Source of the DNA: a virus
UHGV virus genome: UHGV-0876952
Direction: 5' to 3' (one strand)
Length of the DNA stretch: 24,924 nucleotides
How positions within the stretch are numbered: position 1 is the first letter of the stretch; every line of letters starts with the position of its first letter. The notes beneath the pieces were generated by a model. That model saw only the letters and a program-made list of their open reading frames with translations, did no database searches and was not told the DNA's origin. The position numbers were made by a program, and so were the translations under genes. This document shows, piece by piece, positions 13,972 through 14,669 of the stretch.

Positions 13972-14118
13972 GCGCTGAAAAAAGTGTTGCTAGGATATTA
14001 GCAAGCTATGGTTAAGAACGTCTGCCGTAATTATCTATCACAGCGTTGAGCGGTCTGGTTTATGTTAGCGGAGTCTTAATCGAGTTGATTAAAAGGCCAA
14101 ACCGCTCAACGCTGTGTC

Positions 14119-14205
14119 TGGCGGAGAGTAATGGAATCGAACCATCATCGTTTGCACAATGGGACGGTTTTCAAGACCGCTTGAGCACCATGCTCCCTAC
14201 TCTCC
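14119..14205 (-). tRNA. tRNA-Ser-like (anticodon UGA), type II with long variable arm
   Basis: 87 nt. Acceptor GGAGAGT/ACTCTCC, discriminator G, encoded CCA, T-loop TTCGATT, anticodon stem GCGGT/ACCGT with loop CTTGAAA, 17-nt variable arm. Position 8 is A rather than U and the D-arm is atypical, hence reduced confidence. Confidence 0.6.
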
Positions 14206-14422
14206 AATTGTTGTGGTTACCGGTACTGATCTCCGGCTTAGCGACCCCGGCTACTGACTGCATTGCAGTGTGTGAACTCGCCTCGTGTGTCGCTGGGGCA
14301 TTTCTTTCCGCGCATCAGTCTGCGCATCAACCACAACGAAAAGAGCACTGTATGACGTTTGCACGGACTTACGCTTAAAACAGGGCAGTCTCGGCGGTTT
14401 TCAATGCTCTTTCCTGTTGTGT

Positions 14423-14498
14423 TGGTGCCGGTTAACGGACTCGAACCGCTGACATCCTGCTTACAAGGCAGGCGCTCTACCAACTGAGCTAAACCGGC
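14423..14498 (-). tRNA. tRNA-Thr (anticodon UGU)
   Basis: 76 nt. Canonical cloverleaf GCCGGTT-TA-GCTCAGTTGGTAGAGC-...-CCTGC CTTGTAA GCAGG-...-GGTTCGAGTCC-...-AACCGGC-A-CCA. Confidence 0.9.
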
Positions 14499-14502
14499 AA
14501 TT

Positions 14503-14589
14503 TGGTGGGGAGTGATGGAGTCGAACCACCCGAGTCGCAATGACAGTAGATTTACAGTCTACACCGCTACCTCTACGGACTAACTCCCC
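14503..14589 (-). tRNA. tRNA-Tyr (anticodon GUA), type II
   Basis: 87 nt. Acceptor GGGGAGT/ACTCCCC, U8 A9, anticodon stem-loop GTAGA CTGTAAA TCTAC, long variable arm, T-loop TTCGACT, encoded CCA. Confidence 0.85.
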
Positions 14590-14594
14590 TAAAT

Positions 14595-14669
14595 TGGCGA
14601 TGGTGGGTGGATTCGAACCACCGACCAGTTGGTTAACAGCCAACTGCTCTACCGCTGAGCCACACCATC
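14595..14669 (-). tRNA. tRNA-Asn (anticodon GUU)
   Basis: 75 nt. Acceptor GATGGTG/CACCATC, D-arm GCTC AGCGGTA GAGC, anticodon stem-loop GTTGG CTGTTAA CCAAC, T-arm GGTGG TTCGAAT CCACC, discriminator G, CCA. Confidence 0.9.

Follow-up and report, generated by a model that had tools for sequence, protein, structure and literature searches.

What occupies a long gap in an otherwise tightly packed cluster of phage transfer RNA (tRNA) genes? The question is raised by the viral genome UHGV-0876952, of which a stretch of 24,924 nucleotides (nt), called the window here, was analysed. The window is part of an SSU5-like phage-plasmid; in its RNA region, identity is 95–99% with the Escherichia phages Cyrano and CMS-2020a and about 79% with SSU5 itself, a Salmonella phage. 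The initial annotation of this DNA placed four tRNA genes on the minus strand, interrupted by 217 bp with no tRNA signature, and suggested that a small structured RNA might lie there. ARAGORN finds exactly four minus-strand tRNAs, Ser(UGA), Thr(UGU), Tyr(GUA), and Asn(GUU), at the same positions, and the 217-nt gap between the Ser and Thr genes (14206–14422) shows no tRNA or other Rfam family, either with ARAGORN or in a permissive Rfam scan at E ≤ 10. The gap does hold structured RNA, in two modules which each have comparative support. We propose, with moderate confidence, that these are a punctuation hairpin, D1, and a tRNA-shaped carrier with an insert, D2, which would be a stable RNA processed from the tRNA operon. 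What is new here is this two-part conserved RNA in the spacer, which is widespread and recurs without annotation in hundreds of enterobacterial phages; the lineage of the adjacent tRNA-Ser was already known.

The gap folds at −70.4 kcal/mol (z = −2.45) into two domains on the tRNA strand, and all features described below lie on this minus strand. In the minimum free energy fold, D1 (14338–14414) is a hairpin whose stem, GGAAAGAGCAUUG/CAGUGCUCUUUUC, has 13 bp and whose apical region is variable. Its 5′ flank, CACAAC (14416–14421), pairs with GUUGUG (14337–14332), the first six bases of D2, and this adds 6 bp to give a full stem of 19–20 bp (D1 with flanks, 14421–14332). D2 (14210–14337) is enclosed by the closing stem GUUGUGGUU/AACCACAAC of the same fold. 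Within it, hairpin A, GCGCA-GACUGA-UGCGC (14310–14325), takes the position of a D-arm, a variable insert of 72 nt (14238–14309) takes the position of the anticodon arm, and hairpin B, GCCGG-AGAUCAGUA-CCGGU (14219–14237), takes the position of a T-arm and abuts the 3′ strand of the closing stem. The loops of hairpins A and B kiss, forming a loop–loop helix of 5–6 bp. D2 ends 4 nt before the start of tRNA-Ser.

The structure of the gap goes far beyond chance, because many phages keep the stems through compensatory changes. Since no clean alignment over the full length was practical with such variable inserts, conserved segments were excised from each module by similarity to a consensus, not by complementarity, and 42 distinct modules were counted. 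Among these, 94.7% of the cells pair, and double changes are found at 17 of the 37 pairs, compared with 5.6 ± 1.6 in shuffles (0 of 500 reach the observed value) and 2–6 in controls with the partner slid. All five helices are backed by covariation, at 9/13 pairs in D1, 2/9 in the D2 closing stem, 2/5 in hairpin A, 3/5 in hairpin B, and 1/5 in the loop–loop helix. Furthermore, G·U pairs are frequent, showing that the RNA strand is the tRNA strand. In an unanchored set, 97 of 110 distinct cores have loops that are complementary at 5/5 positions, against 2.9% when loop B is shuffled, and the two loops change jointly (GGCUGA/UCAGC, GACUGA/UCAGU (4/6), and GGUCGA/UCGAC (2/2)).

The assignment of D2 as tRNA-shaped comes from its topology and from natural variants. 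D2 resembles a canonical tRNA in its acceptor-like stem, its linker of 2–3 nt, the arm in the D position, and the 5-bp arm in the T position on the 3′ strand, as well as in being co-transcribed with tRNAs. In four variants (loci L198, L204, L225, and L263), a canonical D-arm (GCUC-AAUGGC-GAGC) stands in place of hairpin A and a T-arm, such as GCAUG-UUCGAUU-CAUGC, in place of hairpin B, so that real D and T loops are retained, and the D2 closing stem, a 2-nt linker, and the long insert in the anticodon position are all kept. Judged by this comparison, the D2 of the window belongs to a subtype in which a Watson–Crick kiss has taken the place of the elbow between D-loop and T-loop. Unlike a canonical tRNA, the window D2 has no anticodon arm, encoded CCA, or T-loop, and it is not called by tRNA finders. 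It is also similar to the engineered tRNA scaffolds reportedly made by Ponchon and Dardel, with cargo RNA replacing the anticodon arm, in that the cargo sits at the anticodon position. The inserts are very diverse: among 151 D2 copies there are 98 unique sequences in 56 clusters, from 32 to 162 nt. Even so, the insert has structure: where the window has the basal insert helix AGCGAC/GUCGCU, Cronobacter phage ES2 has AUUGGU/ACCGAU.

How widespread is the module? In a BLAST search with the gap, its D2 was matched at 80% identity by ES2, where the match lies between the genes for the Q antiterminator and the holin, and a 41-nt junction piece was matched at 90% identity in Klebsiella and E. coli phages, in several of which (ASO78B, DP01) it lies just upstream of tRNA genes. 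Pattern scans of viral contigs, one anchored on the 5′ side of D2 and a second on the D1/D2 junction, gave at least 120 loci each, and at least 150 loci of phages and prophages carry the D2 scaffold, placed either within a tRNA cluster or in the interval from Q to the lysis genes. When one genome per species was scanned, 42 pattern matches were obtained, mostly in Enterobacterales and Aeromonas with a few in odd metagenome bins, and 31 of the 42 also have the 3′ motif. Among the 151 D2 copies with the 3′ motif, 30 have a tRNA on the same strand within 400 nt, and 72 have a T-run within 110 nt downstream. In lambdoid prophages the module lies between Q and holin, and in many contigs it directly follows a terminator-like T-run. 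In HK620 (L175, 1230–1895), the array is located between pR′/qut and the late terminator tQ, and the leader of about 650 nt is made up entirely of D1, an SsrA-like tag unit (see below), a further D1, and D2, with the terminator after them. Because the pR′ leader is constitutive, lysogens too may make this whole array. Contigs binned as Geobacteraceae, Acidobacteriota, Marinobacterium, and Noviherbaspirillum (L144, L147, L145, and L154) also carry D2 cores with good 3′ motifs, one of these cores lying 8 nt from a tRNA-like call; they reflect either a wider host range or mis-binned phage contigs.

The spacer itself matches 58 of 5426 complete E. coli genomes. Full-length identity of at least 99% is found in 19 of the 58, and those listed are plasmids of about 72–198 kb. 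One of the plasmids with 100% identity is NZ_CP095139. On E. coli plasmids that carry it, the RefSeq annotation shows four tRNAs, including Ser, and leaves the spacer blank. The length of the Ser–Thr spacer is 8 nt in Cyrano, 217 nt in the window, 224 and 490 nt in two CMS-2020a isolates, 446 nt in P7, and 465 nt in D6. The idea that the gap is a sequence without conservation or structure is contradicted by both its fold and the covariation of its stems in many phages.

Is D2 related to any known RNA? The window D2 has the closing stem UGGUG/CACCA, an AAU linker, a 5′ hairpin, a variable middle, and a CCGG-type 3′ hairpin. STnc100 (RF02076) and PasD share with D2 the 3′ strand of D1, GUUGUGGUGAAU, a first hairpin, a variable middle, a CCGG-type second hairpin, and CACCACAA, and they share with the D2 homologues the niche between Q and the lysis genes. 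The STnc100 model, which has a cut-off of 47 bits, gives 23.8 bits with the ES2 D2 and its terminator, a copy 80% identical to that of the window, and 39.6 bits with a second unit 3′ of tRNA-Ser in D6 (L003, 2794–2914, minus strand); both are below the cut-off. A different subtype (L230, 6707–6913) passes with 48.2 bits, and this match starts with the D1 3′ strand and GUUGUGGUGAAU and ends with CACCACAAAG (...CCCGGCACCACAAAG). Since the L230 match carries the D1 junction and the closing stem, STnc100 is one subtype of the D2 scaffold, provided with a terminator. The extra STnc100-type unit of D6, which is also present in P7, is preceded by CGCAACGUUAAGAGUAUU, a D1-like start. The window D2 differs in having the complementary loops GACUGA/UCAGU, which the STnc100 type lacks, and in having no 3′ single-stranded seed or terminator, being located 4 nt upstream of a tRNA in a tRNA operon. 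We have filed it, on these sequence features, as a new variant related to STnc100 and not as a member of that family.

A 2026 preprint describes PasD1 and PasD2 of enteropathogenic E. coli as small RNAs (sRNAs) that are bound to Hfq (RIL-seq), adjacent to Q, and structural homologues of STnc100, with function unknown. Another paper detected STnc100 in vesicles and only speculated on its targets. The relation of the Pas sRNAs to the module is through PasD and is one of structure. The YrlA (Y RNA-like) RNA resembles D1 and D2 in combining a long stem with tRNA-like elements, and some D1 apices are T-arm-like. The YrlA model gives only chance-level scores of 15–26 bits over the true tRNAs, against a gathering cut-off of 69, and no rsr (Rsr/Ro60) gene is found among the annotated neighbors. 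Small stable RNAs other than tRNAs occur in or near phage tRNA or immunity operons, such as the stable RNA species 1 and 2 of T4 (rnaC and rnaD) and the c4 RNA of P1 and P7. These are cut from a polycistronic precursor by tRNA-processing enzymes, c4 being released by RNase P, and the function of the T4 species is likewise unknown. D2 can be likened to them by description only, as an RNA within a phage tRNA operon; the Rfam C4 family has no match in the window. Y RNA and C4 RNA were both rejected as identities. Nor does D2 match any Rfam ribozyme or riboswitch, and outside its helices only the AAU linker is conserved. A hammerhead-like CUGAUG in D2 was discounted, as its bases are in the loop of hairpin A and pair with loop B, and there is no conserved core. 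A small peptide in the insert (AUG CCC CAG..., 16 codons, partly present in ES2) was also rejected, because most insert types have no open reading frame (ORF).

What is the function of D1? Whichever unit lies downstream of D1, its first six bases pair with the six bases on the 5′ side of D1. In 72 cases GUUGUG is paired with CACAAC, CAUAAC, or CGCAAC, while for other unit starts the pairs are GAUAGU with ACUAUC or GUUAUC, GAUGGU with GCUAUC, and AGUUUU with GAAAUC. The flank helix therefore covaries with four different downstream unit starts. There are three D1-type hairpins in the window (15057–14936, 14421–14332, and 14116–14039). The last of these was described in the initial annotation as a 10-bp inverted repeat on the 3′ side of the cluster; the repeat is real, but its size was underestimated, as it is a hairpin with a perfect 20-bp stem, CACAGCGUUGAGCGGUUUGG/CCAGACCGCUCAACGCUGUG (z = −6.7 against shuffles). 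It has the layout of D1, CACAGC-GUUGAGCGGUUUGG ... CCAGACCGCUCAAC-GCUGUG, with flanks CACAGC/GCUGUG that compensate relative to the CACAAC/GUUGUG of D1. MicroRNA-like Rfam matches were dismissed as chance matches on the 20-bp hairpin. The upstream hairpin (15057–14936) also has a perfect 20-bp stem, CACAACGUUGAGGCCAUUAC/GUAGUGGCCUCAACGUUGUG (fold z = −4.5), and is followed by a short unit, GUUGUGAAG...UUUUCACAAC (14941–14878), the whole module spanning 14878–15057. This short unit ends in CACAAC and resembles the short first unit of P7 and D6. Some D1 apical regions, such as that of D6, contain a T-arm-like GGGUUCGAAUCCC.

By pairing in this way, the D1 flank sequesters the 5′ end of the downstream unit. 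We suggest that D1 acts as punctuation, a double-stranded element for processing or folding that would hold and then release the 5′ end of the unit that follows. A perfect 20-bp duplex is a classical RNase III substrate, and D1 is plausibly a substrate of the RNase III type. The precursor would then be cut at the D1 hairpins and at the tRNA ends. Because D2 ends 4 nt before tRNA-Ser, cleavage by RNase P at the 5′ end of tRNA-Ser would define the 3′ end of D2. D2 would be a stable RNA because both of its ends are paired and tRNA-like. In the proposed mechanism, the scaffold would be a carrier that stabilizes and presents the fast-evolving insert, which would be the part that bears specificity, acting by base-pairing or as a decoy. 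In lambdoid prophages, the scaffold followed by a single-stranded stretch and a terminator corresponds to the Hfq-associated sRNAs STnc100 and PasD.

Several observations weigh against this proposal. The first six bases of D2 (GUUGUG) can pair either in the D1 extension or in the closing stem of D2, but not in both at once, and the mature fold is uncertain because of this competition; sequential folding or cleavage may resolve it. In 11–15 of the 42 sequences, the closing stem of D2 lacks its two outermost pairs. Both scans were anchored on conserved sequence, so the variation observable at the anchored positions is limited. The window D2 has no match to STnc100 at E ≤ 10, and on its 3′ side there is no single-stranded stretch, terminator, or poly-U tail such as an Hfq-class sRNA should have, with tRNA-Ser following after 4 nt and the nearest terminator at 13964–13945. 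In Cyrano, whose flanks are about 96% identical, the module is missing altogether and 8 nt separate Ser from Thr; the module is thus dispensable for the tRNAs. Finally, inserts that differ so extremely could be no more than unconstrained filler.

The alternative that fares best is a spacer with a purely cis-acting role in processing, in which D1 and D2 would insulate their neighbors and help to fold or process them, and would then be degraded, the insert having no function. The pairing of D1 flanks with the 5′ end of any following unit is indeed like a processing device, and the three D1-type hairpins bracket units in the window. However, Cyrano has the same Thr and Ser tRNAs with its 8-nt spacer, and the close apposition of D2 and tRNA-Ser, which would fit a cis role, is set against the fact that about half of the D2 copies are far from any tRNA and have their own terminator. 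The inserts are hypervariable, as such a spacer would allow, but their helices covary between the window and ES2. Furthermore, STnc100-type copies accumulate as RNAs, either Hfq-bound or in vesicles, according to the published work. We consider the cis-acting spacer to be unlikely.

Could the module instead be a selfish or recombinational cassette, with scaffold ends that serve as homology anchors or are insertion-site duplications, and with only a secondary role as RNA? Near-identical plasmids are polymorphic for its presence and copy number (8, 217, 224, and 490 nt), the same insert is found with different D1s, and D1 and D2 are exchanged independently, with E. coli matches that cover nt 1–100 only or 76–217 only. 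No transposase or integrase, however, accompanies the module across its contexts. ACAAC is present at both ends, and the empty site in Cyrano reads ACACAA, but this is not an exact single copy of the repeat, and the terminal repeats are accounted for by the covarying RNA pairing with its G·U pairs. A target-site duplication (ACACAA in Cyrano, ACACAAC...CACAAC in the window) was set aside on the same grounds, as RNA pairing explains the repeats better and the empty site is inexact, and it is kept as a minor rival. The cassette is, on balance, quite unlikely as an explanation.

A further alternative involves a second RNA element upstream. On the tRNA strand, some 650 nt upstream of tRNA-Asn, there is a tmRNA-like unit (15252–15394), recognized by its conserved frame and by weak matches to the Rfam models tmRNA_permuted and beta_tmRNA (tmRNA, transfer-messenger RNA), with scores of 22.7 and 17.3 bits that are below the cut-offs. 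It corresponds to the mRNA-like part of tmRNA. The tag frame (15354–15319) reads GCA AAC GAA GAA GUC UAU CUG GCA GUA GCC UAA UAA, or ANEEVYLAVA followed by two stops, and it retains synonymous third-position changes over 37 distinct units. The SsrA tag of E. coli is ANDENYALAA. Homologous units are present, unannotated, in about 300 phage records, including P7, D6, HK620, SSU5, and Michonne, and encode the tags ANEDTYLAVA in SSU5, ANEEMYLAVA in HK620 and DP01, ANDNVFLAVA in the FelixO1-like phage Michonne, ANDDLMMAAA in P7, and ANDDLMMVAA in D6. The unit resembles tmRNA in its reading frame with a GCA resume codon, in the 10-codon tag ending in a hydrophobic residue-Ala-Val/Ala-Ala, in the double stops, in the covarying hairpin after the stop codons, and, in relatives, in an H-type pseudoknot-like element. 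It differs in having no recognizable tRNA-like domain (TLD), with its acceptor G3·U70 alanine identity pair, T-arm, and 3′ CCA. ARAGORN finds no tmRNA in the window or in six related loci. What precedes the unit is either a sigma-70-like promoter or a D1 hairpin. In the tmRNA literature consulted, phage tmRNAs are listed only for mycobacteriophages and Bacillus phage G, and a text search of the literature on tmRNA-like RNAs of bacteriophages found nothing relevant.

Might D2 then be part of a trans-translation device, working with or like the upstream tag template, and perhaps titrating SmpB as TLD-only RNAs do? Such RNAs inhibit tmRNA (PMC4131195), and the topology of D2 is itself tmRNA-like, a tRNA-like domain with a large insert in the anticodon position. 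Among the 133 loci with enough upstream sequence, 31 have a tag frame upstream of D2 on the same strand, always in the order tag and then D2, with a gap of at least 182 nt, and the late-leader RNA of HK620, described above, contains both. This order on one transcript is seen in P7, D6, HK620, SSU5-like plasmids, and N4-like phages. However, the tag unit never lies inside D2, Michonne has a tag unit without D2, one tag type occurs with unrelated D2 inserts, and neither ARAGORN nor Rfam calls a tmRNA. The D2 of the window subtype lacks G3·U70, a conserved CCA, and a canonical T-loop, and the bases that resemble CCA covary with the 5′ strand. A reading of D2 as a tRNA-like domain that can be charged was rejected for similar reasons, as CCA-like triplets are found in a subset of 3′ flanks, CACCA covaries with the 5′ strand, and there is no G·U at position 3. 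A two-piece tmRNA held together by pairing between the tag unit and the D2 insert was also rejected, since the same tag occurs with unrelated inserts and no conserved complementarity was seen. A trans-translation role for D2 is thus very unlikely. A bolder version, in which the operon would be a phage RNA toolkit against ribosome rescue, with the tag template and D2 forming a tmRNA, either split or a decoy, to re-tag or block trans-translation during infection and with D1 cutting the pieces apart, is speculative and has in our judgment a low probability.

The remaining idea, that the spacer is a neutrally drifting remnant of one or two tRNA genes, would account for the tRNA topology of D2, the canonical D- and T-arms of some relatives, the T-arm-like apices of some D1s, such as that of D6, and a tRNA-like remnant in the Ser–Thr spacer of rV5, but it is highly improbable, as the scaffold keeps its sequence and pairing with compensatory changes across unrelated phage groups, the spacer is at least 99% identical in 19 E. 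coli genomes, the kissing loop is a derived and maintained feature, and no tRNA model scores in the spacer.

The tRNA-Ser(UGA) gene next to D2 (14119–14205) is itself unusual. The initial annotation had pointed out A at position 8 and an atypical D-arm, and had left open whether the gene is a functional variant or a degenerate copy. Both features are present, with A8 in GGAGAGU-A-GG... and a D-arm consisting of a 4-bp stem and a 5-nt loop. The gene is below the gathering cut-off of RF00005 (29 bits) and is missing from a gathering-score Rfam scan, and its best covariance match in a permissive scan is to the tRNA-Sec model, with 44.8 bits against a gathering cut-off of 47. Rejection by covariance models, which would have spoken for a degenerate copy, is thus true of RF00005, but ARAGORN accepts the gene and covariation supports it. 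It has a cloverleaf with an anticodon loop, the long variable arm of class II, the T-loop UUCGAUU, G73, and a 3′ CCA. Across seven phages (the window, P7, D6, Cyrano, rV5, Klebsiella phage Roth39, and Pseudomonas phage Pyxpy01), 7 of 27 consensus pairs are changed on both sides and the cloverleaf is retained. The gene matches 204 phage records at 78–98% identity. It has been labelled tRNA-Ser by the Prokaryotic Genome Annotation Pipeline (PGAP) and by several depositors, and in rV5-like phages it is annotated as trnS, "discovered using ARAGORN"; in P7 the Ser gene itself is unannotated. A8 is able to pair with the base 3′ of the T-stem, which allows an 8/4 acceptor/T arrangement as an alternative to 7/5, and this is probably the reason for the pull toward the tRNA-Sec model. 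From the 204 records and the seven compensatory pairs, tRNA-Ser(UGA) appears to be a functional, unusual member of a known phage-specific tRNA lineage and not a decayed copy.

The Asn (14595–14669; RF00005, 74.2 bits), class II Tyr (14503–14589; 41.6 bits), and Thr (14423–14498; 74.9 bits) genes each have both a gathering score in Rfam and an ARAGORN call. Comparison of the anticodon set with codon usage of the element is consistent with a role for Thr(UGU) and Ser(UGA). In the long ORFs of the window, ACA makes up 32% of the Thr codons and UCA 23% of the Ser codons, while the usage of these codons in E. coli is about half the window values. Because both codons are raised relative to E. coli, supplementation by these two tRNAs fits. 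The Cyrano cluster contains only Ser, Thr, and Asn, with the Thr and Asn genes 2 nt apart (L001, 3276–3428), and tRNA-Tyr is present in the window and CMS-2020a. Since this close relative lacks it, tRNA-Tyr is a recent gain or loss. The Tyr and Ser genes of the window are about 93% identical to those of rV5-like phages, and the neighborhood in rV5 is likewise Tyr, Ser, and Thr. This identity, together with the matching neighborhood, suggests that tRNA cassettes may be exchanged between unrelated phages.

Taken as a whole, the best explanation of the region 13945–15400 on the minus strand, and one that we think reasonably probable, is a non-coding RNA operon in which tRNAs are interleaved with structured modules that are not tRNAs. 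This operon reaches about 800 nt further upstream than the tRNA cluster. An intrinsic terminator found by a terminator scan, AAAGGGGCUUCGGCCCCUUUUUUG (13945–13964), is the probable end of the operon. A scan of 13800–15500 for sigma-70 promoters found no consensus promoter, and related loci have a promoter-like sequence, TTGACA-17-TAGATT, upstream of the tag unit. Directly 5′ of the tag unit there is a TATAAGAT box which is kept in SSU5; the promoter of the window was judged by eye only. The rest of the ORF-poor leader of about 790 nt (14670–14877 and 15100–15250, minus strand) contains further strong hairpins, such as GGAGGGAACAUUCAUGUUCCCUCC and GGCACUG...CAGUGCU. In rV5, the Ser–Thr spacer of 202 nt (L264, 392–593) contains a hairpin, UGUUGACC...GGUCAACA, and a tRNA-like RNA that is not called, with the acceptor GCUAGGU/ACCUAGC, the T-arm GGUGG-UUCGAUU-CCAUC, and a 3′ end of ACC and a U-run. 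Because the rV5 spacer holds this uncalled RNA, other phage tRNA clusters likewise hide tRNA-like RNAs.

In the usual annotation, phage tRNA clusters and the lambdoid leader that runs from Q to the lysis genes appear as tRNAs and blank spacers. The blanks hold a modular RNA system, common to P7, D6, HK620, and FelixO1-like, N4-like, and SSU5-like elements, in which punctuation hairpins are combined with a tRNA-shaped carrier, whose cargo is hypervariable, and with an orphan template for a tmRNA tag. Annotation with covariance models misses both the conserved, unusual tRNA-Ser lineage and most members of the D2 family. The prophage sRNAs STnc100 and PasD are tied in this way to a tRNA-derived scaffold, which offers a structural explanation of their stability and also a reason why they diversify rapidly, and D2 suggests a natural counterpart of the engineered tRNA scaffold. 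These modules provide testable RNAs in genetically tractable phages.

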